64,000 bases of DNA. Source: Escherichia coli. Lineage in GTDB: Bacteria > Pseudomonadota > Gammaproteobacteria > Enterobacterales > Enterobacteriaceae. Position numbers and translations under genes: made by a program. The notes under the pieces were generated by a model. It was not told the origin of the DNA and made no database searches. It was given only the letters and a program-made list of their open reading frames with translations. Below are positions 2 through 46,239 of this stretch, piece after piece. The stretch is from assembly GCF_046105845.1 (NCBI RefSeq), contig NZ_CP151004.1, one strand, 5' to 3'. How positions within the stretch are numbered: the stretch's first letter is position 1; every line of letters starts with the position of its first letter.

Positions 2-1009
2 GCTATTTTCGGCGGGAAAAGACGAGTAAGAATTTCAAGTCAAAGCCTTAAACGTGCGATGCGTAAAAGTGATTATTACGCACAAAATATTGGTGAATCC
101 AGTCTCAGAACAATTCATCTTGCACAATTACGTGATGTTCTTCGGCAAAAACTTGGTGAACGTTTTGACCAAAAAATCATCGATAAGACATTAGCGCTGC
201 TCTCCGGTAAATTAGTTGATGAAGCCGAAAAGATTTCTGCCGATGCGGTTACTCCATGGGTTGTGGGAGAAATAGCCTGGTTCTGTGAGCAGGTTGCAAA
301 AGCAGAGGCTGATAATCTGGATGATAAAAAGCTGCTCAAAGTTCTTAAGGAAGATATTGCCGCCATACGTGTGAATTTACAGCAGGGTGTTGATATTGCG
401 CTTAGTGGAAGAATGGCAACCAGCGGCATGATGAGTGAGTTGGGAAAAGTTGATGGTGCAATGTCCATTGCGCATGCGATCACTACTCATCAGGTTGATT
501 CTGATATTGACTGGTTCACCGCTGTAGATGATTTACAGGAACAAGGTTCTGCACATCTGGGAACTCAGGAATTTTCATCGGGTGTTTTTTATCGTTATGC
601 CAACATTAACCTCGCTCAACTTCAGGAAAATTTAGGTGGAGCCTCCAGGGAGCAGGCTCTGGAAATTGCAACCCATGTTGTTCATATGCTGGCAACAGAG
701 GTCCCTGGAGCAAAACAGCGTACTTATGCCGCTTTTAACCCTGCGGATATGGTAATGGTTAATTTCTCCGATATGCCACTTTCTATGGCAAATGCTTTTG
801 AAAAAGCGGTTAAAGCGAAAGATGGCTTTTTGCAACCGTCTATACAGGCGTTTAATCAATATTGGGATCGCGTTGCCAATGGATATGGTCTGAACGGAGC
901 AGCTGCGCAATTCAGCTTATCTGATGTAGACCCAATTACTGCTCAAGTTAAACAAATGCCTACTTTAGAACAGTTAAAATCCTGGGTTCGTAATAATGGC
1001 GAGGCGTGA
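2..1009 (+). CDS. casC: Cascade subunit CasC (Cas7e), 5' end cut by window edge
   Basis: Reading frame is open from nt 2 to the stop at 1009; the 316-aa track ORF is the C-terminal part. Followed directly by casD, casE, cas1, cas2 and a type I-E array. Confidence 0.85.
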
Positions 1010-1011
1010 AC

Positions 1012-1686
1012 ATGAGATCTTATTTGATCTTGCGGCTTGCTGGGCCAATGCAAGCCTGGGGGCAGCCGACCTTTGAAGGAACGCGACCTACCAGAAGATT
1101 TCCGACCCGAAGCGGGTTATTAGGGCTACTCGGGGCTTGTCTTGGGATCCAACGTGATGATACTTCTTCATTACAGGCGTTATCAGAGAGTGTGCAATTT
1201 GCAGTGCGCTGCGATGAACTCATTCTTGACGATCGTCGTGTGTCTGTAACGGGGTTGCGTGATTACCATACAGTCCTTGGAGCGCGAGAAGATTACCGTG
1301 GTTTGAAAAGTCATGAAACGATTCAAACATGGCGCGAATATTTATGTGATGCCTCCTTTACCGTCGCTCTCTGGTTAACACCCCATGCAACGATGGTTAT
1401 CTCAGAACTTGAAAAAGCAGTATTAAAGCCTCGGTATACACCCTACCTGGGGCGAAGAAGTTGCCCACTAACACACCCGCTTTTTTTGGGGACATGTCAG
1501 GCATCGGATCCTCAGAAGGCGCTATTAAATTATGAGCCCGTTGGCGGCGATATTTATAGTGAGGAATCAGTTACAGGGCATCATTTAAAATTTACGGCGC
1601 GCGACGAACCGATGATCACCTTACCTCGACAATTTGCTTCCCGAGAATGGTATGTGATTAAAGGAGGTATGGATGTATCTCAGTAA
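1012..1686 (+). CDS. casD: Cascade subunit CasD (Cas5e)
   Basis: Track ORF 1006..1686; ATG at 1012 gives MRSYLILRLAGPMQAWG..., recognised as E. coli CasD; 3' end overlaps casE by 14 nt. Confidence 0.9.
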   Translation: MRSYLILRLAGPMQAWGQPTFEGTRPTRRFPTRSGLLGLLGACLGIQRDDTSSLQALSESVQFAVRCDELILDDRRVSVTGLRDYHTVLGAREDYRGLKSHETIQTWREYLCDASFTVALWLTPHATMVISELEKAVLKPRYTPYLGRRSCPLTHPLFLGTCQASDPQKALLNYEPVGGDIYSEESVTGHHLKFTARDEPMITLPRQFASREWYVIKGGMDVSQ

Positions 1687-2272
1687 AGTCATCATTGCCA
1701 GGGCCTGGAGCAGGGATCTTTACCAACTTCACCAGGGATTATGGCATTTATTTCCAAACAGACCGGATGCTGCTCGTGATTTTCTTTTTCATGTTGAGAA
1801 GCGAAACACACCAGAAGGCTGTCATGTTTTATTGCAGTCAGCGCAAATACCTGTTTCAACTGCCGTTGCGACAGTCATTAAAACTAAACAGGTTGAATTT
1901 CAACTTCAGGTTGGTGTTCCACTCTATTTTCGGCTTCGGGCAAATCCGATCAAAACTATTCTCGACAATCAAAAGCGCCTGGACAGTAAAGGGAATATTA
2001 AACGCTGTCGGGTTCCGTTAATAAAAGAAGCAGAACAAATCGCGTGGTTGCAACGTAAATTGGGCAATGCGGCGCGCGTTGAAGATGTGCATCCCATATC
2101 GGAACGGCCACAGTATTTTTCTGGTGATGGTAAAAGTGGAAAGATCCAAACGGTTTGCTTTGAAGGGGTGATCACCATCAACGACGCGCCAGTGTTAATA
2201 GATCTTGTACAGCAAGGTATTGGGCCAGCTAAATCGATGGGATGTGGCTTGCTATCTTTGGCTCCACTGTGA
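1673..2272 (+). CDS. casE: CRISPR repeat endoribonuclease CasE (Cas6e)
   Basis: 199-aa ORF MYLSKVIIARAWSRDLYQLHQGLWHLF..., recognised as Cas6e; position between casD and cas1. Confidence 0.92.
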   Translation: MYLSKVIIARAWSRDLYQLHQGLWHLFPNRPDAARDFLFHVEKRNTPEGCHVLLQSAQIPVSTAVATVIKTKQVEFQLQVGVPLYFRLRANPIKTILDNQKRLDSKGNIKRCRVPLIKEAEQIAWLQRKLGNAARVEDVHPISERPQYFSGDGKSGKIQTVCFEGVITINDAPVLIDLVQQGIGPAKSMGCGLLSLAPL

Positions 2273-2287
2273 TTGAGGTGTAATAAA

Positions 2288-3491
<1,204 letters not shown>

Positions 3492-3596
3492 AAACAAAGA
3501 ATTAGCTGATCTTTAATAATAAGGAAATGTTACATTAAGGTTGGTGGGTTGTTTTTATGGGAAAAAATGCTTTAAGAACAAATGTATACTTTTAGA
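3492..3596 (+). promoter_or_regulatory. CRISPR leader (AT-rich, contains the array promoter)
   Basis: 105-bp AT-rich segment between the cas2 stop and the first repeat; in type I-E systems the leader sits here and new spacers are added at this end. Confidence 0.6.
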
Positions 3597-5089
3597 GAGT
3601 TCCCCGCGCCAGCGGGGATAAACCGTCCGATCCGAAAAAACGGGTAGTCGCCTACGAGAGTTCCCCGCGCCAGCGGGGATAAACCGCCCAGTGGCGAAGG
3701 GCAACGTAAGCATAAAACGAGTTCCCCGCGCCAGCGGGGATAAACCGGGGTAACACCGTGGCAGCAAGTCGATCCGCTGGAGTTCCCCGCGCCAGCGGGG
3801 ATAAACCTGATGCGCGCCGACTTGAATCACTGCGCATGGCGAGTTCCCCGCGCCAGCGGGGATAAACCGATGGACCGTGCCGCTTTTCGCCACCTGACGC
3901 CGAGTTCCCCGCGCCAGCGGGGATAAACCGTGGCTCCGGTCGGGGCCCGCCGCTTGCGGTGGGAGTTCCCCGCGCCAGCGGGGATAAACCGGTGCGTGAA
4001 TTATCTATCCAGGCAAAAGTAACGAGTTCCCCGCGCCAGCGGGGATAAACCGCATATTTTTCAGGATATCTATAAATGGGCGGGGAGTTCCCCGCGCCAG
4101 CGGGGATAAACCGCTCATCAAAATAATCGGCATTGTCAGAAATCCGAGTTCCCCGCGCCAGCGGGGATAAACCGTGCACTGGCTGACTACGCCGCAGCAC
4201 ATAAATGAGTTCCCCGCGCCAGCGGGGATAAACCGATAATTGATGCGATCTGGTCCACTACAGTGGCGAGTTCCCCGCGCCAGCGGGGATAAACCGTAGT
4301 TGCTGTTTAGGCTGTGTTGTGGTTACCAGAGTTCCCCGCGCCAGCGGGGATAAACCGACCTGCTCGCGATGCGTCTGCCGCTGGAACCCGAGTTCCCCGC
4401 GCCAGCGGGGATAAACCGTTGCGCGATCCATCGCTCAGCTTTGATCATGAGAGTTCCCCGCGCCAGCGGGGATAAACCGCGCAGCGCCGACGAACTGGAC
4501 GGCGCTATAAAGAGTTCCCCGCGCCAGCGGGGATAAACCGATGTGGCAGAAATTGATGGAGCGGATGTGCGAGAGTTCCCCGCGCCAGCGGGGATAAACC
4601 GATTTAGATACGGCACACAGGAATGCGCTGGATGAGTTCCCCGCGCCAGCGGGGATAAACCGCGGCTGGCTGTAATAATGCACGGCAGTGTGACGAGTTC
4701 CCCGCGCCAGCGGGGATAAACCGTGAATAATAAGGCGCTGACGGGCGATATTACGGAGTTCCCCGCGCCAGCGGGGATAAACCGGAACAACCTGAACGGA
4801 TGCCACCTTTTCACCTGAGTTCCCCGCGCCAGCGGGGATAAACCAACCGTCAGCATAGACCCATCTAGTCAGATTCTGTGTTCCCCGCGCCAGCGGGGAT
4901 AAACCGGCCCATTCCCCCCATACCGGCGGCAAGTTTAAGTGTTCCCCGCGCCAGCGGGGATAAACCGATTCCGTCAAATTTATCACTCAACGCCAGTTCG
5001 TGTTCCCCGCGCCAGCGGGGATAAACCGGGCGCACTGGATGCGATGATGGATATCACTTAGAATTCCCCGCCCCTGCGGTAGAACTCGC
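3597..5089 (+). CRISPR. Type I-E CRISPR array: 24 full 29-bp repeats, one degenerate terminal repeat, 24 spacers of 32 bp
   Basis: Repeat GAGTTCCCCGCGCCAGCGGGGATAAACCG recurs with an exact 61-bp period from 3597 to 5000. The last three full repeats begin GTG instead of GAG, and repeats 4 and 21 differ in their last base. Degenerate repeat GAATTCCCCGCCCCTGCGGTAGAACTCG at 5061..5089. Confidence 0.97.
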
Positions 5090-5109
5090 AGCTCTCATTT
5101 TCAACCCCA

Positions 5110-6147
5110 TCAAGACGCCTTCGCCAGCTCCTTCACCAGAGGTAGCATTATCCGCATAACATCACGGCAGCGACGTTCTATTCTTCCTGGAAGTGCCTTA
5201 TCAATATGTTGTTGATTATCCAGTCTTACGTCATGCCAGCTATTTCCCGCAGGGAATGCAGCTGTTTTTGCGCGTTGCTGATAACCATCCTTATTCCCAA
5301 GATTCCAATTTGTTGCTTCTACCGAAAGTACGGCAATACCGGCTTTGTCGAAAACTTCGGCGTCATTACAACAGCCAGTACCCTTCGGATAATTTTTATT
5401 CAAACCCGGATTGGTCGTTGCGGCAATTCCATGACTACGCGCAATTGCCAGTGCCCTGTCGCGCGTTAATTTCCTTACTGCTTCAGGGGTTTTTACACCA
5501 CTATTGAAATACAATTTATCGCCAACAATTAAGTTATCGAGATTAATCACCAGCAGCGTATTTTTCTTTTCGGTGTCACTCATCCGCTTGAGTAAATTCT
5601 CAGCGCCTAATTTCCCTTCCTCTTCACCGCTGGTCGCCACAAATCGAATACCATACTCGGTAGGCGTATTTTTCAGGCGTTCTGCCAGTTCCAGCATAAC
5701 ACCTAAACCTGCGGCGTTATCATCTATTCCTTGTAACGTCAGCCCGCCGAGATTGGCATCGGCGTCAGCATCGCTCAGCGGAGCGTAAGTATCCAGATGC
5801 GCCATAATGATGATCTGCTGCGGCGCTTTGCCTTCATGAGCGGCAATCACCGTACTTCCCGTCACGTTATGCCAGCTCTTGCGATTATCGCGGGCGGTAT
5901 AAATATACCGACTATTAAATGTCCGAATATCACTGCGATAACCCATTTGCTGAAACTGCTGGCGAATATAATCGGCAGATAACATTTCTGCAGGAGTTCC
6001 GGTCATGCGTCCCGGAAAGAAAGTAGCAATATGTCGTGCCTGGGTATTAGCAAAATCGCCAGGTTTAGGTGACGAGGCGTGTACGGGGAGAATAAAGCAT
6101 ACGCCGAGCGCCAGGGCAGCGGTACGGTGGCGCAATGCGGAAAACAT
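5110..6147 (-). CDS. iap: Alkaline phosphatase isozyme conversion aminopeptidase (M28 family)
   Basis: 345-aa ORF with signal-peptide-like N-terminus, recognised as Iap; the array's distal end abuts its stop, the classic iap-CRISPR arrangement. Confidence 0.9.
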   Translation of the reverse strand: MFSALRHRTAALALGVCFILPVHASSPKPGDFANTQARHIATFFPGRMTGTPAEMLSADYIRQQFQQMGYRSDIRTFNSRYIYTARDNRKSWHNVTGSTVIAAHEGKAPQQIIIMAHLDTYAPLSDADADANLGGLTLQGIDDNAAGLGVMLELAERLKNTPTEYGIRFVATSGEEEGKLGAENLLKRMSDTEKKNTLLVINLDNLIVGDKLYFNSGVKTPEAVRKLTRDRALAIARSHGIAATTNPGLNKNYPKGTGCCNDAEVFDKAGIAVLSVEATNWNLGNKDGYQQRAKTAAFPAGNSWHDVRLDNQQHIDKALPGRIERRCRDVMRIMLPLVKELAKAS

Positions 6148-15117: not shown

Positions 15118-15179
15118 ATCGGCGGAACCAGGCTTTTGCTTGAATGTTCCGTCAAGGGATCACGGGTAGGAGCCACCTT

Positions 15180-16172
15180 ATGAGTCAGAATACGCTGAAA
15201 GTTCATGATTTAAATGAAGATGCGGAATTTGATGAGAACGGAGTTGAGGTTTTTGACGAAAAGGCCTTAGTAGAAGAGGAACCCAGTGATAACGATTTGG
15301 CCGAAGAGGAACTGTTATCGCAGGGAGCCACACAGCGTGTGTTGGACGCGACTCAGCTTTACCTTGGTGAGATTGGTTATTCACCACTGTTAACGGCCGA
15401 AGAAGAAGTTTATTTTGCGCGTCGCGCACTGCGTGGAGATGTTGCCTCCCGCCGCCGGATGATCGAGAGTAACTTGCGTCTGGTGGTAAAAATTGCCCGC
15501 CGTTATGGCAATCGTGGTCTGGCGTTGCTGGACCTGATCGAAGAGGGCAACCTGGGGCTGATCCGCGCGGTAGAGAAGTTTGACCCGGAACGTGGTTTCC
15601 GCTTCTCAACATACGCAACCTGGTGGATTCGCCAGACGATCGAACGGGCGATTATGAACCAAACCCGTACTATTCGTTTGCCGATTCACATCGTAAAGGA
15701 GCTGAACGTTTACCTGCGAACCGCACGCGAGTTGTCCCATAAACTGGACCACGAACCAAGTGCGGAAGAGATCGCAGAGCAACTGGATAAGCCAGTTGAT
15801 GACGTCAGCCGTATGCTTCGTCTTAACGAGCGCATTACCTCGGTAGACACCCCGCTGGGTGGTGATTCCGAAAAAGCGTTGCTGGACATCCTGGCCGATG
15901 AAAAAGAGAACGGTCCGGAAGATACCACGCAAGATGACGATATGAAGCAGAGCATCGTCAAATGGCTGTTCGAGCTGAACGCCAAACAGCGTGAAGTACT
16001 GGCACGTCGATTCGGTTTGCTGGGGTACGAAGCGGCAACACTGGAAGATGTAGGTCGTGAAATTGGCCTCACCCGTGAACGTGTTCGCCAGATTCAGGTT
16101 GAAGGCCTGCGCCGTTTGCGCGAAATCCTGCAAACGCAGGGGCTGAATATCGAAGCGCTGTTCCGCGAGTAA
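15180..16172 (+). CDS. rpoS: RNA polymerase sigma factor RpoS (sigma-38), full length
   Basis: Internal ATG of track ORF 15144..16172 gives [34 protein letters not shown]... (330 aa); no premature stop, codon 33 reads E. Confidence 0.95.
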
Positions 16173-16292: not shown

Positions 16293-16637
16293 CTATTTGC
16301 TCATCATCTTGCGCACCAACTGCATAAACAGCTCCTTCTCTTCTGCACTCAAACGCCCCAAAAATTCCTCATCCACACTGTCACCAATCGGTATCGCCGC
16401 AGCAAGTACCTTTTCTCCTTCGGCAGTCAGCCAGACAAAGCGACGCCGCTTGTCAGCGGCGTCATGTTCACGTCTGACTAAGCCACGATTTTCCATTCTT
16501 GCCAACATTTCTGCCAGCGTTGCTTTGGTGCTGACTGCTGCTTCTATCAGTGCCACCTGTTCGATACCAGGCTTATCAGCAATGGCGCGCATCACCGCGT
16601 ACTGTGGTTTGGTCAGGTCAGGTAACTCGACCCCGGC
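16293..16637 (-). pseudogene. MarR/SlyA-family regulator, apparently 5'-truncated
   Basis: The 100-aa track ORF begins inside the winged-helix region (…LTKPQYAVMMRAIADKPGIEQVALIEAAVSTKATLAEMLARMENRGLVRRE…); the frame stays open upstream only to a stop at about 16638, with no room for the N-terminal helix. Confidence 0.55.
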
Positions 16638-16793
16638 TCAAGCCCGGCCGGGATCACCGACAAGCTGATTATCGACGCCACCACGCCTGTCGCCCCGGAC
16701 AACCGTGGTCACTACAGCCAGCCCGTGGTGGATTTGCCGGAAACCAAAGCCTGGGCTGAAAAACTGACCGCTATGCTGGCCGCACGTAAATAA
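16626..16793 (+). pseudogene. 3' fragment (about 55 codons) of a UbiD-family decarboxylase gene
   Basis: Frame without a start codon translates to …GITDKLIIDATTPVAPDNRGHYSQPVVDLPETKAWAEKLTAMLAARK*, which looks like a UbiD-family C-terminus; it is bounded upstream by a stop at about 16623 and abuts the truncated MarR gene. Confidence 0.5.
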
Positions 16794-16803
16794 GGAGAAC
16801 AAG

Positions 16804-17040
16804 ATGATTTGTCCACGTTGTGCCGATGAACAGATTGAAGTGATGGCGAAATCGCCGGTAAAAGATGTCTGGACGGTCTACCAGTGCCAGCATTGCCTCT
16901 ATACCTGGCGCGATACCGAACCGCTACGCCGCACCAGCCGCGAACATTATCCCGAAGCGTTCCGCATGACGCAGAAAGATATTGATGACGCGCCGATGGT
17001 GCCGAGCATCCCGCCGCTGCTGGCGGCAGATAAGCGTTAA
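16804..17040 (+). CDS. Small zinc-ribbon protein resembling the D subunit of hydroxyarylic acid decarboxylases (EcdD/BsdD-like)
   Basis: 78-aa ORF MICPRCADEQIEV…VYQCQHCLYTW with two CxxC pairs; AAGGAG ribosome-binding site 7 nt upstream; lies right after the UbiD-like fragment. Confidence 0.6.
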   Translation: MICPRCADEQIEVMAKSPVKDVWTVYQCQHCLYTWRDTEPLRRTSREHYPEAFRMTQKDIDDAPMVPSIPPLLAADKR

Positions 17041-17080
17041 TAAAAAGTGCCGGGTAGTGGCTTTGCTTTACCCGGCCTCA

Positions 17081-17737
17081 TTACTTTATTTTATAAAATG
17101 ACAGCCGCCCGCTTTTCGGCGATCCGGTATCAATATAAATCTGGTTAGCGAACGTCTGAATGTTATCAAACATCATATGTCCAAATATAAAATAATCAGC
17201 GCCGTTTATTTGTTGTAACTCGCCATTAAGCGATTTCTGCACACGATCAACAGGCCAGAGTAGTTCTCTCTCCGCTATTTCTTTGTCAAAGAGATATTCA
17301 TTCCCCGGATAATCTGCATGTGCGATGACATATTTTATTATGTCGTTAGTGATTTCAATAATATGTGGAAGGCGATGAAATTTCAGCAACAGATTTATTG
17401 CTTCTTGTTGTTCCGTCTCATTTAATTCAAAGAACCAGTCGCCGCCGCTGGCAAGCCACATATTTCCATCGCCAGTTTCGAATGCATCAAGCGCCATCGC
17501 TTCATGGTTGCCTTTAACCGACGTAAACCAGGGTTGGTTTAGCAGGTGCAGCACGTTAAGACTCTCCGGCCCACGATCAATATTATCGCCGACAGAAATA
17601 AGTAAGTCGGTTTCAGGGCAAAAAGAGAGTTGATGTAAGCGGGATTGTAATAATTGATAGTCACCATGAATATCACCAACGGCCCATATATGGCGATAGT
17701 GATGGGTATTGATTTTTTGATAGCGTGTAGATGGCAT
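17081..17737 (-). CDS. pphB: Serine/threonine protein phosphatase 2
   Basis: 218-aa ORF with metallophosphatase motifs (GDIHGD, GDNIDRG, GNHE); adjacent to mutS. Confidence 0.9.
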   Translation of the reverse strand: MPSTRYQKINTHHYRHIWAVGDIHGDYQLLQSRLHQLSFCPETDLLISVGDNIDRGPESLNVLHLLNQPWFTSVKGNHEAMALDAFETGDGNMWLASGGDWFFELNETEQQEAINLLLKFHRLPHIIEITNDIIKYVIAHADYPGNEYLFDKEIAERELLWPVDRVQKSLNGELQQINGADYFIFGHMMFDNIQTFANQIYIDTGSPKSGRLSFYKIK

Positions 17738-20690: not shown

Positions 20691-21035
20691 ATGTCCGGCA
20701 AGCGTATCTCTCGTGAAAAACTGACGATTAAAAAAATGATCGATCTTTATCAAGCGAAATGCCCGCAGGCGTCAGCGGAGCCGGAGCATTACGAGGCGTT
20801 GTTTGTTTACGCGCAAAAGCGGCTGGATAAATGTGTGTTCGGCGAAGAGAAACCAGCCTGTAAGCAGTGTCCGGTGCACTGTTACCAGCCTGCAAAGCGT
20901 GAAGAGATGAAACAGATTATGCGTTGGGCCGGGCCGAGAATGCTGTGGCGTCATCCGATCTTAACCGTGCGTCATCTCATCGATGACAAGCGTCCGGTGC
21001 CGGAGTTGCCAGAAAAATATCGTCCAAAGAAATAA
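20691..21035 (+). CDS. ygbA: Nitric oxide-responsive protein YgbA
   Basis: 114-aa ORF MSGKRISREKLTIKKMIDLYQAKCPQASAEPEHYE…; divergent from mutS. Confidence 0.85.
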   Translation: MSGKRISREKLTIKKMIDLYQAKCPQASAEPEHYEALFVYAQKRLDKCVFGEEKPACKQCPVHCYQPAKREEMKQIMRWAGPRMLWRHPILTVRHLIDDKRPVPELPEKYRPKK

Positions 21036-21073
21036 ATCTGCCGGAGAGCCATACTCTCCGGCAAATAAGGCGT

Positions 21074-21502
21074 TTACGCTTTGGTGGCAATCAGGATGGC
21101 TGATGCTTTGATCAATGCAATAACGCGTGAGCCAGTGGTGAGTTTCATTTCATCCTGACTTTCATTTGTTACCACTGCCACAATTTCAAAACCCGCATCC
21201 GTTTTGATATGGACAGTGGCGTTCACTGCGCCTTCGGTGATTGTCGACACGCTGCCAGCAAACTGGTTGCGAGCAGAGAATTTCAGTCCACAGTCTTCCG
21301 TTGCCAGCGTTACCCACGGGGCTTTAATCAGGGCAATCGCTTCTTTCCCTTTCGCCAGACCCAGAGCCTGCTGGCTGCTGTGAGTCACAATTGCCACCAG
21401 CTTTGCACCACCTGCCAGCGTCAGTTCTACTTCGTCATTCACCGCGCCCATTGCTACTGCGCTAACTGTTCCGGTTAATTGATTTCTTGCTGAAACTGCC
21501 AT
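21074..21502 (-). CDS. Tandem TOBE (Mop-like) molybdate/tungstate-binding protein
   Basis: 142 aa from the ATG that has a strong GAAAGGAGG ribosome-binding site; two ~68-aa repeats each starting with the SARNQ(L/F)xG(T/S)V Mop signature; starts 44 nt after the fhlA stop on the same strand. Confidence 0.75.
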   Translation of the reverse strand: MAVSARNQLTGTVSAVAMGAVNDEVELTLAGGAKLVAIVTHSSQQALGLAKGKEAIALIKAPWVTLATEDCGLKFSARNQFAGSVSTITEGAVNATVHIKTDAGFEIVAVVTNESQDEMKLTTGSRVIALIKASAILIATKA

Positions 21503-21546
21503 ACTGCCTCCTTTCATTGAATGTTGATCGAGTATAACCACATCTG

Positions 21547-23625
21547 TTAAATCAATGCCGATTTATCAATTCCCAGTCGCTTCATCCGTGACAGCAGAGT
21601 CGTGCGTTTCAGCCCCAGACGTTGCGCAGCGCCTTTAGGCCCGGCAACCACGCCGTTGGTTTCTTTCAGCACGCGAACAATCAACTGATATTCATCTTCG
21701 CCCTCCTGGGCGACAACCGTTGCGGCAGGCGGCGTTTCTGGTTCCGGTAAAACAATATCTGGCAGTGACAGCTGCAGCACGTTGCCGCGTGTTAGCAATA
21801 CCGCGCGCTCAATGACGTTTTCCAGTTCGCGTACGTTACCCGGCCACTCCATGTTGCTCAGGATGCGCAGCGTCTCGGCAGGAATGCTGTCGATATTGCG
21901 CCCCAGACGACGGGCAATTTTGAAGGTAAAGGCTTTCGCCAGCAGCGGAATATCTTCCGGACGCTCGCGTAGTGGCGGCAGGTGAATCGGGAATACGTTC
22001 AGGCGGTAATAGAGATCGCTACGGAACTCACGGTCGGCGACCATTTTTTTCAGATCGCGGTTAGTTGCGGCGATTAGACGCACGTCCGTCTGAATGATTT
22101 TGTTGCTGCCGAGACGTTCAAACTCCTGTTCCTGTAATACACGCAGCAACTTCGGCTGTAACTCCAGTGGCATATCGCCCACTTCGTCGAGGAACAGGGA
22201 GCTTTTATCCGCCAGTTCAAAACGACCGATACGCTGGGCGCTGGCACCGGTAAAAGCCCCACGCTCATGACCAAACAGATCGCTCTCTAGCAATCCGGCA
22301 GGCATCGCCGCGCAGTTCATTTTTACCATGCGGCGATTATTACGCCCACTGAGATTATGGATCGCGCGGGCAATCAGCTCTTTACCCGTGCCAGTTTCAC
22401 CGAGGATCAGCACGGTACTGTCGCTTTGCGCCACCATTTCAACTTGTTTAAGTACGCTGTACATGGCTTCGCTGCGGCCAATAATCTCGCCAAATTCACT
22501 ATCAACATTGTTGAGCTGCTCGGTCAGGGCGAGGTTTTCATCAACCAGCCGTTCTTTCAGACGATGGATTTCCTGATAGGCGAGGGCGTTATCGACAGCG
22601 ATTGCCACACGTTCGGCAATCTGGCGCAGTAAATTCAGATTGGTAGTGGTAAACACTTTCTCTTCGCATTGCGCCAGTTTCAGCACGCCCAGCATGGTGT
22701 CGCCAGACATCAGCGGTAACAGGCACAAGGTTTGAATCTGGTTGCCCCAGGTGTCGAACAACATGCGTTCATAGGGGGCTAAATCGTCCCGCTCGTGGAG
22801 ATTAATCAGCAGCATCTCTTTGCTTTTGAACACGCGTTCGGTGAGGGTTCCGGCTTCATCGACTTCGCTCTGTTCGTGGGCGGGATGCTGTTTATCAAGA
22901 TAGTGAGTGGAGTAGATGTTGAGTTTGTTTTTACGGTGGCTGCGTAAGACGATGCTGATATCGTCAATGTCGAAGTAGTAATGGATTTCTTTGGCGACTT
23001 CGCTGACCAGTTCGTCCATATCCAGGCGGGAAAGCACCGCGTTGGTAATGGCAACCAGGATGCGGAAGTTATCGCGCTCCCGGCATAACAACTCATAGTC
23101 GACATTATTGACGACGCGGCTCTGGATTTGTTCGGTGACGACAGAAACGATCTGCGTAAATGTTTGCAGACGATTGAACTCTTTTTCGCTCCAGGGGCGA
23201 TCGTCATAACGAATAAATTCACAGCCACCAAAAATATGCCCTTCCGCCGCCAGTGGCATCAGGCAATAGTGACCAAATTTGGGGTATAGCCCACCTGCGG
23301 CCAGCTGCGGCCAGGTTTCACAAAATTCTTCGTAACTGCAATGCAGCGTATCAGGGCGCGACAAAATGCTGCGTACCGGACCGTGTGCCAGAACAGTTTC
23401 GTCTTCATATTTAATGGGGGTGTCTTTTTCACGCGATGCGTAATAAGACGCACGTTGAGTCTGCGCTTGCCACAACACAATAGCCGCGTTGTCGGCGAGC
23501 GCAGAACGCTTTACCAGTTGCGAAAGAGCCTCACACAGCGAGGCCAGATCGGGCTGCTGCAATAGTGTCCGAGTGATGTCGAACAACCCTTGTTGTCCGA
23601 GATCACTCATCGGTGTATATGACAT
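21547..23625 (-). CDS. fhlA: Formate hydrogenlyase transcriptional activator FhlA (sigma54 enhancer-binding protein)
   Basis: Internal ATG of track ORF gives MSYTPMSDLGQQGLFDITRTLLQQPDLASL… (692 aa); AAA+ sigma54-interaction domain ([14 protein letters not shown]). Confidence 0.95.
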   Translation of the reverse strand: MSYTPMSDLGQQGLFDITRTLLQQPDLASLCEALSQLVKRSALADNAAIVLWQAQTQRASYYASREKDTPIKYEDETVLAHGPVRSILSRPDTLHCSYEEFCETWPQLAAGGLYPKFGHYCLMPLAAEGHIFGGCEFIRYDDRPWSEKEFNRLQTFTQIVSVVTEQIQSRVVNNVDYELLCRERDNFRILVAITNAVLSRLDMDELVSEVAKEIHYYFDIDDISIVLRSHRKNKLNIYSTHYLDKQHPAHEQSEVDEAGTLTERVFKSKEMLLINLHERDDLAPYERMLFDTWGNQIQTLCLLPLMSGDTMLGVLKLAQCEEKVFTTTNLNLLRQIAERVAIAVDNALAYQEIHRLKERLVDENLALTEQLNNVDSEFGEIIGRSEAMYSVLKQVEMVAQSDSTVLILGETGTGKELIARAIHNLSGRNNRRMVKMNCAAMPAGLLESDLFGHERGAFTGASAQRIGRFELADKSSLFLDEVGDMPLELQPKLLRVLQEQEFERLGSNKIIQTDVRLIAATNRDLKKMVADREFRSDLYYRLNVFPIHLPPLRERPEDIPLLAKAFTFKIARRLGRNIDSIPAETLRILSNMEWPGNVRELENVIERAVLLTRGNVLQLSLPDIVLPEPETPPAATVVAQEGEDEYQLIVRVLKETNGVVAGPKGAAQRLGLKRTTLLSRMKRLGIDKSALI

Positions 23626-35556: not shown

Positions 35557-35868
35557 ATGCACATCATTTCTAAAGCGCCATTTGAAGAGTGTGCGCGCAA
35601 ATATCCTAACGACGCTCTGGCTCTACACTCATTGTATCGGGTTATTAAGGAAACGGATTTTTCTACACCAGAAGAAATGCGAACGGCGTTTCCCAACCTC
35701 GACAATTTTAGATATCGCAACAAATGGTACGTTCTGGATGTCGGCGGGAACAATCTTAGGGTTATTGCCTACATAAACTTTGTTAATAAGCGGTTCTTTG
35801 TGAAGCACATAACGAATCACGCAGAGTATGACAAACTGACACGTTACTACAGAGAGAACAAAGAATGA
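35557..35868 (+). CDS. HigB-family (RelE/ParE superfamily) type II toxin, mRNA interferase
   Basis: 103-aa ORF MHIISKAPFEECARKYPNDALALHSLYRVIKETDFSTPEEMRTAFPNLDNFRYRNKWYVLDVGGNNLRVIAYINF…HAEYD…; shares the MH.I…KYP…FP.LDNF.Y…YV..VGGN.LRV…H.EYD pattern with E. coli HigB but is clearly a different sequence; AAGGAAG ribosome-binding site. Confidence 0.8.
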   Translation: MHIISKAPFEECARKYPNDALALHSLYRVIKETDFSTPEEMRTAFPNLDNFRYRNKWYVLDVGGNNLRVIAYINFVNKRFFVKHITNHAEYDKLTRYYRENKE

Positions 35869-36284
35869 CTGCTAATGCTGCACGCGCTGTTAAAGCAACA
35901 AGAGAACTGGTCAATGCAGTCCCCTTTCTGGGAGGTAGTGACTCAGAAGATGATTATCGTGAAGCACTGGAACTGGTCGAATATTTGATTGAAGAAGATG
36001 ACACCAATCCACTTATCGACTTTCTGGCGAGCCGCATTGCAGAATATGAAAACAACAACGAAAAGTTTGCCGAGTTCGACAAAGCCGTTGCAGCAATGCC
36101 GGTTGGCGTGGCGTTACTTCGTACGCTGATTGATCAACATAATCTGACCTATGCGGATTTGAAGAACGAAATCGGCTCTAAATCCCTGGTCAGTCAGATT
36201 TTGTCTGGACAACGATCCCTGACGATATCCCATATTAAGGCACTTTCAGCCCGATTTGGCGTTAAGCCGGAATGGTTTCTTTGA
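35865..36284 (+). CDS. HigA-family antitoxin (C-terminal XRE helix-turn-helix)
   Basis: 139-aa ORF overlapping the toxin stop by 4 nt (ATGA); C-terminal …IGSKSLVSQILSGQRSLTISHIKALSARFGVKPEWFL is HigA-like. Confidence 0.8.
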   Translation: MTANAARAVKATRELVNAVPFLGGSDSEDDYREALELVEYLIEEDDTNPLIDFLASRIAEYENNNEKFAEFDKAVAAMPVGVALLRTLIDQHNLTYADLKNEIGSKSLVSQILSGQRSLTISHIKALSARFGVKPEWFL

Positions 36285-43669: not shown

Positions 43670-44803
43670 CTATACCGGCAACGTTTTCAACAATCCAAAT
43701 GCCTCTTTCATCCTATCCTCACTGACCACAAAGGCGCGAAGCTGGTCAGCATCGTCAACGCCGCGCGCCACCATTCCCTGGCGTTCGGTATTAATTTGCC
43801 AGCGTAAATCCTGACGCTGGGTTTCGCCTGCCAGATGCAGCGGTAATTCCGGCGTTTTGATTTTCACCAGCATCGCCGGGAGTTTCAGCGGCGTGTTATT
43901 GCCGAGAAGATTTTTTGCCAGCACCATCGCGCTAAGTTGAATCGGCTGGAGGAACGGCAATACCTGACCGTTAATTTCCGCGCAATCGCCCAGCGCATAA
44001 ATATCGGCATTACTGGTTTGCAGATAACTATCGACGCAAACGCCGCGATTAATCGTCAGCCCGGCGCGTCGTGCCAGGGCGGTTTCCGGGCGCAGCCCGG
44101 TGGCGGCAATTATCGCATCCACTTCGATGCAACGCTGGCGGTCCAGCGTTGCCAGAATGCCAGAATCCGTTTTTTCCAGCCCCTGCAACTGAGATTTTAA
44201 CAGCAGATGAACGCCCATCTCCGTCAACCGATGCTGTAAGCGGCTGCTTACTTCCGGTGGCATTAACGATGCCAGAATACTGGCAGCGTTGTCGATTAGC
44301 GTGACCGCTTTGCCTGCACGACAAAAATCCATCGCCAGTTCGCTACCAATCAAACCACCGCCGACAATCAACACGCGTCGGGCATCCCGCAGTTGCGTTT
44401 CACAGGCGCGATACTCTTGCTGACTATTTAACGTCAGCATTAACTCACGCCCGGGCACTGGCGGGACAAAGGCGCTGGCACCGGTTGCCAGCACTAACTT
44501 GTCGTATTGCCACTGATTATTCTGACTTTTCACCACATGGGCTTCGGCATCGATATCCGTTACCCAGGTGTGCGGAAACAGGCGCAGATTAAACTGCTCG
44601 GCAAATTCACCCGCTGTCTGGCGGGTAAGGTCATCGGCACGTTGCCCATGGCTGATAACATGGCTGAGATCCGGTTTGTTGTACTCATCCATGCTGTCGG
44701 CGGCAATCAGGGTTAATGGAATACTGGCGTCCTGTTTGCGAATATTTTTCACCAGTTGGCGGGCGGCGAAGCCCGAACCAATGATCACAATGCCGTTGCT
44801 CAT
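43670..44803 (-). CDS. norW: NADH:flavorubredoxin oxidoreductase
   Basis: 377-aa ORF with FAD/NAD Rossmann motifs ([16 protein letters not shown]). Confidence 0.93.
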
Positions 44804-46239
44804 TTTGCCTCCGATGCCAGTTCGTCAAAGACGTCTTTGCCAAGGGAGCATTCCGGGCACAGGAAGTTATCCGGGACTTCACTCCACGGCGTTCCTGGTG
44901 CAACGTCCTGCATTGGCTCGCCTTTTGCCGGATCGTAAATCCACTGGCAGACGCTGCACTGCATCCGTGGGCCGAGGTCAGCCGTCGTGGTGGCAGAGGT
45001 TTCTTCTTTAACCACCGTATTCACCGTGCTCTGCGGCAGCGGCGCGAGCGCCCACTGACGGGCAATTTCACGACCGTGTTCACGGCATAACTCCAGCGCG
45101 TCCTGGTCCGGTCGCCATTTGGCTTTCAGGCTAAGCGACATTTCGAAACCTGCATCCTGCAGGCGTGTGGAAAGACGATCCACCGCACCGCCGCTCCAGC
45201 CGTGAGAGCCGAAAGCACTGGCGTGTTTGTTACGGAAGCGTAATCCGGTCATCTCCTCCACCAGCCCGGCGATTTTCGGCATCATCACGTTATTCATCGT
45301 CGAAGTGCCAACCAGCACGCCTTTTGAGCGGAAGACATTGGTCAGGATTTCGTTTTTATCGCTTCGGGCGACGTTGAAAATTTTCACCGCCACGCGTGGG
45401 TCGGTTTCCGCAATCCCCTGGGCGATAGCGTCAGCCATCATGCGGGTATTATTCGACATGGTGTCGTAGAAAATGGTGATTCTGTCTTCCTGATAATCCG
45501 CCGCCCATTTCAGGTACAGCTCGACAATTTGCGTCGGGTTATCGCGCCATACCACGCCGTGAGAGGTCGCTATCATATCGACTGGTAAGTTAAAGCCCAG
45601 GATCTCGGTAATTTTCGGCGTTACCAGACGGCTGAACGGCGTCAGGATATTGGCGTAGTAACGCTGGCACTGCTCGAAAAGCTCCGTCTGATCCACTTCA
45701 TCGTTGAACAGATGCTCGTCGCAGTAGTGCTGACCGAAAGCATCGTTACTGAACAGCACCGCGTCGCCTGTCAGGTAAGTCATCATGCTGTCCGGCCAGT
45801 GCAGCATTGGCGTTTCGACAAAAATGAGCTGTTTGCCGTTGCCGATATCCAGCGTGTCGCCAGTTTTCACCACATTAAAATTCCACTCCGGATGATGGTG
45901 ATGACCATTTATCGAGTCGATAGCGTTGGCAGTACAGTAGATCGGCGTATCGGGAATTTGTGCCATCAGTTCGGTCAGCGCCCCGGCGTGGTCCTCTTCT
46001 GCATGGTTAATCACGATGTAATCGATATCCGCCAGATCGATTTCATTACGCAGGTTCTGCACAAATTCGCGGCTGAATTTATGGTCGACGGTGTCGATCA
46101 GTACGTTTTTTTCTTCGCGAATGAGGTAGCTGTTGTAGCTGCTGCCGCGCAGCGTTTTATATTCCGTGCCGTGAAAATCACGCACTTCCCAGTCACGTTG
46201 ACCAACCCAATGAATGTTATTTTTCACCACAATAGACAT
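44800..46239 (-). CDS. norV: Anaerobic nitric oxide reductase flavorubredoxin
   Basis: 479-aa ORF: metallo-beta-lactamase-like and flavodoxin domains, C-terminal rubredoxin ([10 protein letters not shown]…CPEC). Confidence 0.95.

Follow-up and report, generated by a model that had tools for sequence, protein, structure and literature searches.

Comparative evidence for an ancestral ModG-like gene behind fhlA in the Enterobacteriaceae, deleted in K-12-type Escherichia coli

In Escherichia coli K-12 MG1655, the gap between the formate hydrogenlyase activator gene fhlA and ygbA measures 36 nt and holds no gene, as the initial annotation of the present locus had stated. The occurrence of a complete gene of the molybdate-binding Mop family at the same position in another E. 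coli genome, within a window of 64,000 nucleotides that constitutes the whole stretch of DNA analyzed here, hence raises two questions: whether the gene, hereafter mop, was gained by some strains or lost by others, and what its product might contribute directly downstream of fhlA. The family itself is familiar, with structures available for ModG, Mop, Tub, and ModE, and mop is an uncharacterized member of it with an ordinary predicted function. The new points are modest: the gene appears to be ancestral, it is conserved behind fhlA, and a single deletion appears to have removed it from K-12 and from all sampled strains of phylogroups A, B1, and E. A search of the openly accessible literature returned no paper on an enterobacterial mop gene, on its linkage to fhlA, or on its absence from K-12. 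In RefSeq, mop proteins go under the names "TOBE domain-containing protein" and "molybdopterin-binding protein," with some labelled "transporter" or "molybdate transport system regulatory protein."

The mop coding sequence occupies positions 21074-21502 of the minus strand (142 aa; 429 nt with the stop codon), according to both ORF translation and RefSeq (WP_000301062.1, "TOBE domain-containing protein"). Its upstream neighbor on the same strand is the fhlA ORF (21547-23625, minus strand, 692 aa, TAA stop at 21547-21549), whose product matches the FhlA proteins annotated in strain A16 and in K-12 at 100%, and the 44-nt distance between both genes given in the initial annotation is borne out by a spacer at 21503-21546 (minus strand) that contains a conserved TATACT. 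In the mechanical ORF list, the mop frame is extended to a GTG codon at 21541, yielding 155 aa (21074-21541), but the sequence places the real start at the ATG at 21502, because of the ribosome-binding site at 21507-21512, the N-termini of orthologues, and the 429-nt RefSeq annotation. This site, as read from the sequence, is a strong AGGAGG Shine-Dalgarno element on the minus strand, 4 nt before the ATG, and its GGAG is invariant, at the same distance from the ATG, in 24 of 24 aligned orthologous spacers. The orthologue N-termini conform to M-[A/S/T/K]-[V/I/T/F]-SARN, and all the enterobacterial ones to M-[A/S/T]-[V/I]-SARNQ. Furthermore, dN/dS values of 0.03-0.09 across genera indicate that the ORF is a real gene and not a chance one. 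On its downstream side, mop converges with ygbA (20691-21035, plus strand), which encodes 114 aa here and 117 aa in K-12-type alleles, the mop+ and mop- alleles differing at the ygbA 3' end. A terminator scan places an intrinsic-terminator-like hairpin (21036-21066, minus strand) between the stop codons of mop and ygbA; it comprises a 14-pair stem with seven G-C pairs, followed by a TTATTTCTTT T-run, abuts the ygbA stop, and is probably bidirectional and common to both genes. An Rfam scan yielded no RNA family in or near the mop locus. As a matter of nomenclature, the PGAP/RefSeq annotation of four of the loci compared here (L001, L055, L057, and L059) labels fhlA as "flhA" (product "FlhA"), a naming slip for the formate hydrogenlyase activator gene that collides with the flagellar export gene.

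The predicted protein consists solely of two tandem Mop (TOBE type 1) domains, spanning residues ~1-68 and ~74-140, and has no DNA-binding or ATPase domain. Pfam reports two TOBE matches (PF03459; residues 4-66, E = 1.6e-17, and residues 76-137, E = 6.2e-16) and nothing else significant, and the Mop model of NCBIfam (TIGR00638) is matched twice, with 142 bits where 55 are required, so that the initial description of a 142-aa protein made of two TOBE/Mop domains stands. A ModE transcription factor was also considered and is ruled out, since the NCBIfam ModE model is matched only at positions 124-261 of 263, with 88 bits against a cut-off of 369. The closest solved relative is ModG (1h9j; E = 5e-33, full length), with which the mop product shares 68 of 140 positions (48.6%) in a gapless alignment, followed by the di-Mop domain of E. 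coli ModE (~1e-15) and then by single-domain Mop and Tub proteins. An AlphaFold2 model of the monomer, built from a 21-sequence alignment (mean pLDDT 95.3), superimposes through Foldseek on ModG 1h9j over 142 columns with TM-scores of 0.95/0.93 and an rmsd of 1.3 A, and on the ModE di-Mop domain with TM-scores of 0.88-0.90.

The conservation of ligand positions provides a more direct indication of function. In Tub, type-2 sites are built from Ser4, the Arg6 backbone, Lys60, and the Ala61 backbone, together with Ser40 of the neighboring chain, while type-1 sites, located on the three-fold axis, are formed by the backbone of Ala20-Val21-Asn22 (PMC11980592, section 7), and these oxyanion sites resemble those in ModG, Mop, and ModE (PMC11980592). 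Mapped from the Tub residues described there, with Tub aligned without gaps on each half of the mop product, Ser4 and Arg6 correspond to S4 and R6 in domain 1 and to S76 and R78 in domain 2, Ala20-Val21-Asn22 to A20-V21-N22 and A92-V93-N94, Ser40 to T40 and T112, and Lys60 and Ala61 to K60 and A61 and to K132 and A133. Save for three single conservative changes, these 16 positions are invariant among the 46 full-length orthologues retrieved from the fetched loci, whose identity extends down to 40%. In the second Mop domain of ModE, on the other hand, the motifs have been lost, with NADNQ standing for SARNQ, GAEQ for GAVN, and FNAD for IKAS, and this domain is non-binding. Because both of its domains keep the ligand motifs that the second domain of ModE has lost, the mop product looks like a storage-type molbindin with two competent domains, unlike the sensor ModE.

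Within E. coli, the initial annotation had pointed to a comparison of the fhlA-ygbA interval across genomes, and this comparison reveals two well-defined states. The mop segment (511 nt) is present in 1892 of 5426 complete genomes, always as one chromosomal copy and with 95-100% identity in all carriers but one, while a 70-nt probe for the K-12-type junction matches 3502 of the 5426 genomes (3379 of them with at least 99% identity); together, the two states account for 5394 genomes, and 32 have neither. Relative to the window, the segment that K-12-type E. coli (phylogroups A, B1, and E) lacks or has replaced corresponds to 21067-21545 by junction comparison. Reference strains carrying mop include CFT073 and 042, which encode the identical protein WP_000301062.1, as well as ATCC 25922 and a strain named ST648, and those devoid of it include K-12, ATCC 8739, IAI1, and several O157:H7 strains. 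We take the former to belong to phylogroups B2, D, and F and the latter to A, B1, and E, a pattern drawn from reference strains only and in which F stands for the one genome named "ST648"; hence B2 and D at least, plus apparently F, kept mop. This distribution fits a single loss on the branch leading to A/B1/C/E, and makes mop a clean presence/absence marker separating the A, B1, and E strains checked from those of B2, D, and F.

The surroundings of mop in the window show some features of their own. A 791-nt run around the gene (20807-21597) has no mismatches to strain A16 (L001), while the surrounding 8.5 kb differs by 2.5% and divergence climbs to ~7% at the pphB/mutS 3' end, which suggests either mosaic recombination in the mutS region or an unusually low diversity of mop. 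The mutS-rpoS intergenic region, known to be polymorphic, is here a short variant (16293-17737) that contains pphB (17081-17737, minus strand), an orphan 78-aa ORF resembling a "hydroxyarylic acid decarboxylase subunit D" (16804-17040, plus strand) with no larger subunits, and a 100-aa MarR/SlyA-like fragment (16293-16595, minus strand), with rpoS (15144-16172) following directly; CFT073 carries the ygbI-N block at this place. Farther along, a HigB-like toxin ORF (103 aa, 35557-35868) and an HTH antitoxin-like ORF (139 aa, 35865-36284) lie between hycI and ascB. This pair is found in CFT073 and partly in IAI1, and is absent at this site in 042, where hycI and ascB are ~160 nt apart. Lastly, norV (44800-46239) is intact (479 aa) in the window and annotated as frameshifted in strain A16 and CFT073.

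The presence of mop in a third of the complete genomes could reflect either gain or loss, and it is the comparison with other genera that assigns a direction to the change. In a scan of one genome per species, mop immediately follows fhlA, giving the order hypE-fhlA-mop with ygbA next in most cases, in ~35 species representatives of ~12 genera, encompassing Escherichia albertii, a cryptic Escherichia clade, several species of Citrobacter, Pseudocitrobacter, Klebsiella, Raoultella, Kluyvera, Enterobacter, Pluralibacter, Yokenella, Lelliottia, and Kosakonia, and a protein search for mop orthologues also returns E. fergusonii proteins. Synonymous divergence of mop and fhlA is similar (dS of 1.0 and 1.6, respectively, against Citrobacter portucalensis, and of 0.22 and 0.19 against the Escherichia clade) and pairwise dN/dS across genera falls in the range given above for both genes, from which it follows that purifying selection has acted on both during their joint inheritance. 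In every mop+ allele examined, outgroups included, 521 nt lie between the fhlA stop codon and a fixed anchor in the ygbA 3' end, against 55 nt in K-12 and IAI1. Since the same site is occupied across genera, the divergence of mop parallels that of fhlA, and the mop- genomes have one junction in common, the comparative evidence indicates that mop, at the 3' end of fhlA, is ancestral in the Enterobacteriaceae, and that the K-12 state is derived, through a deletion or replacement of ~470 bp rather than through absence of an insertion. The single junction shared by mop- E. coli fits a single ancestral loss.

The initial annotation had instead taken mop for accessory content, a gene recently gained between fhlA and ygbA by an otherwise K-12-like backbone. 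Its absence from K-12 and, more broadly, from 65% of the complete E. coli genomes would agree with such an insertion, and so would the location of Salmonella copies of mop in an island with fimbrial and IS66 TnpB genes, which implies that the gene can be mobile. An origin by insertion is nonetheless very improbable, given that the position is the same in E. albertii, in an Escherichia clade, and in many genera (about ten others besides Escherichia), that the dS of mop tracks that of fhlA, and that 3502 genomes have one and the same junction. Moreover, no integrase, insertion sequence, mobility gene, or repeat is found in the 521-nt interval or at the mop borders, as would be expected of a genomic island, and it is the 55-nt K-12 interval, not the 521-nt interval common to mop+ alleles and outgroups, that is derived and divergent. 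The gene does vary within E. coli, but the direction implied by an insertion of accessory content is wrong, K-12 having lost an ancestral gene.

Between fhlA and ygbA, the K-12-type segment has diverged far more than its flanks and brings the change of YgbA from 114 to 117 aa. It may have been imported rather than left behind by a clean deletion. It keeps a related but diverged hairpin (GCCGGACAG...CTGTCCGGC versus GCCGGAGAG...CTCTCCGGC), which in K-12 and IAI1 lies directly after fhlA. Alignment of this segment (K-12, L002 3918-3965; IAI1, L059 2540-2590) with positions 21036-21075 of the window also reveals a compensatory G/C swap in the terminator stem.

The layout of the locus further suggests how mop may be expressed. 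A consensus scan of the 44-nt fhlA-mop spacer detected neither a terminator nor a sigma-70 promoter, and inspection of the spacer by eye revealed no sigma-54 GG-N10-GC pattern. Because no terminator separates both genes, mop is probably transcribed by read-through from the hyp-fhlA transcript, which the hairpin behind mop would then end. The TATACT at 21531-21536, which recurs as TATA(C/A)(T/A) ~28 nt upstream of the mop ATG in most genera and is not accompanied by a recognizable -35 element, could be a weak internal -10 element. Longer fhlA-mop spacers are seen in Lelliottia, Enterobacter soli, and Citrobacter amalonaticus, and the Lelliottia spacer contains a hairpin after fhlA, which makes independent transcription of mop probable, at least there. 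Control by ModE finds no support. The E. coli ModE consensus, ATCGNTATATA-N6-TATATANCGAT (PMC545781), has no match within three mismatches in the entire window, and scoring of the 200 nt upstream of mop in 24 taxa gives best values of 8-13 out of 20 positions, mostly on a par with those of shuffled sequence, the one nominal match being that of Klebsiella spallanzanii (13/20; shuffle p = 0.03, uncorrected across the 24 taxa).

Taken together, these observations are best accounted for, with a probability of roughly three in four, by a model in which mop encodes an ancestral di-Mop molbindin of the ModG type, acting as a buffer or store of molybdate or tungstate, expressed by read-through, and lost once in E. 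coli. By analogy with Azotobacter vinelandii ModG, the protein would form a trimer equivalent to the hexamer of single-domain Mop and Tub, and could hold up to eight molybdate or tungstate oxyanions, with the S-A-R-N, T/S, and K-A motifs binding six of them at domain interfaces and the G-A-V-N backbone the other two on the three-fold axis. Located in the cytoplasm, it would buffer or store molybdate and supply molybdenum-cofactor enzymes when external molybdate fluctuates, the obvious client in fermenting enterobacteria being formate dehydrogenase H (FDH-H) of the formate hydrogenlyase (FHL) complex. A gene at the end of the hyp-fhlA transcript would have its product made when the formate regulon is on and the molybdenum- and selenium-dependent FDH-H is synthesized, and a weak promoter of its own might add to this supply. 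Strain K-12 makes active FDH-H and shows molybdate-dependent expression of hyc and fdhF. Full FHL synthesis in this strain also needs ModE and molybdate (PMC3149613). Because K-12 has these activities without mop, any contribution of the gene must be auxiliary and dispensable in laboratory culture.

Proteins of the Mop family bind both tungstate and molybdate (PMC11980592), and either oxyanion may therefore be the physiological ligand. It is conceivable, if quite unlikely, that the main role of the mop product is to sequester tungstate, an antagonist of molybdate in the synthesis of E. coli molybdoenzymes. Such a tungstate sink would be in line with the binding of both oxyanions by the related Tub, Mop, and ModG, and with the observation that, in gut species, the ModG-type architecture is commoner in predicted tungsten than molybdenum users (PMC11980592); against it, none of the loci examined has linked tupABC or tungstoenzyme genes, and the sequence offers no discrimination between W and Mo.

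The position of mop behind fhlA raises the further possibility that its product is a regulatory partner rather than a store, reporting molybdate status through protein-protein contact, either in mixed oligomers with the di-Mop domain of ModE or by acting on FhlA, and thereby tuning hyc, fdhF, mod, and moa. The tight and conserved linkage to fhlA across genera speaks for such a partner, as does the similarity of the protein to the ModE di-Mop domain (36% identity; TM 0.89-0.90), which dimerizes through the same surfaces. FhlA-dependent transcription of hyc in K-12 is known to require a molybdenum species, and contacts between Mop and MopB have been reported in Rhodobacter capsulatus, both of which can be counted in its favor. 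The linkage, however, is repeatedly broken. Raoultella sp. BIGb0138 and Enterobacter sp. BIGb0383 have kept mop and lost the entire hyc-hyp-fhlA block that separates it from ascB elsewhere, the order being ascF-ascB, a hycI remnant, and mop in the former (L014, 1615-5444) and ascF-ascB and mop in the latter (L030, 1201-5441), with ygbA further downstream in both. Three Phytobacter genomes (L035, L040, and L047, ~550-5426) have hycI-hypA...hypE followed directly by mop, with neither hyc structural genes nor fhlA at these loci. Conversely, two thirds of E. coli genomes, those of the A, B1, and E type, have kept fhlA and lost mop.

Orthologues in yet other contexts point the same way. Those of Serratia, Cedecea, and Edwardsiella (68-73% identity) have unrelated neighbors, none of them molybdenum-related in Serratia, where they comprise bcp and genes for an AI-2E transporter, LysE, and Lrp. 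In Salmonella enterica, mop was expected next to fhlA and SPI-1, but the copies examined (L052-L054, 6001-6429; 87% identical) do not adjoin fhlA and lie in an island alongside fimbrial usher and chaperone genes, a DUF6429 gene, and IS66 TnpB. Given that fhlA has been lost where mop was kept, that mop has been lost where fhlA was kept, and that no ModE operator is detectable, the linkage of mop and fhlA is, on genomic evidence, old and widespread but not obligatory. These losses and unrelated contexts, as well as the full complement of binding sites in both domains, as in the storage protein ModG and unlike in the sensor ModE, make a regulatory partner unlikely. Storage or buffering is hence favored over its rivals by the reciprocal losses and by the integrity of the second domain, and a dedicated link of mop to the FhlA regulon is possible but unnecessary. 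The idea put forward in the initial annotation, of a protein that buffers or senses molybdate for that regulon, is plausible as far as oxyanion binding goes.

The significance of these results stems largely from the strain in which the system has been studied. K-12 was the strain used in all the classical work on the control of formate hydrogenlyase by molybdate and on E. coli molybdate homeostasis, and it emerges here as a natural deletion mutant for a conserved, predicted cytoplasmic molybdate-binding protein encoded behind fhlA. This gene has been kept in most related genera and in about a third of complete E. coli genomes, among them extra-intestinal pathogens belonging to phylogroups B2 and D, and apparently to F. 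If its product buffers Mo or W to a measurable extent, anaerobic formate and nitrate metabolism, and the metabolism that depends on other molybdoenzymes, would acquire a further level of strain dependence in the gut and the urinary tract. A bolder reading, which must be regarded as speculative and rather improbable, is that in wild-type Enterobacteriaceae the control exerted by molybdenum over formate hydrogenlyase involves, as a functional component, a molbindin co-transcribed with FhlA, which could supply molybdate to FhlA, to ModE, or to MoeA-dependent steps, or signal its level to them. Were this so, the K-12 picture, in which hyc and fdhF respond to molybdate via ModE and MoeA alone, would describe a derived, mop-deleted state of control, common to phylogroups A, B1, and E and not to B2, D, and F.

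Among known systems, the closest parallel to mop is modG of A. vinelandii. Both proteins consist only of two tandem Mop domains (~145 aa in ModG and 142 aa here) and carry the SARN, GAVN, T/S, and KA ligand motifs in each domain, and ModG, whose structures (1h9j, 1h9k, and 1h9m) stem from Delarbre et al. (2001), as cited in PMC11980592, is a trimer with eight sites, an assembly predicted for the mop product by analogy. The genes differ in setting: modG belongs to the mod locus of a nitrogen fixer, whereas mop sits behind fhlA, at the hyp/hyc cluster of fermenting enterobacteria. According to Mouncey et al. (1996), as cited in PMC11980592, modG is ModE-controlled, whereas mop has no detectable ModE box upstream and lies outside a mod locus, and may therefore be regulated differently. 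The di-Mop domain of E. coli ModE (1h9r, 1h9s, 1o7l, and 1b9m) has the same tandem fold, with 34-36% identity, and its first domain shares the SARNQ, T..S, and KAPWV motifs with the mop product; its second domain, however, is degenerate (NADNQ, GAEQ, and FNAD), whereas both domains are intact here, and the mop product is devoid of the N-terminal winged-helix DNA-binding domain of ModE and hence is no transcription factor by itself. Lastly, the single-domain molbindins, comprising Mop of Clostridium pasteurianum, Haemophilus, and Sporomusa and Tub of Eubacterium limosum (PDB 1gug, 1fr3, and 9beb), store molybdate or tungstate in a 32-symmetric assembly, and each half of the mop product aligns with them end to end, with 30-40% identity and identical ligand positions. 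Their ~70-aa chains require six copies for such an assembly, whereas the covalent tandem encoded by mop would need three.
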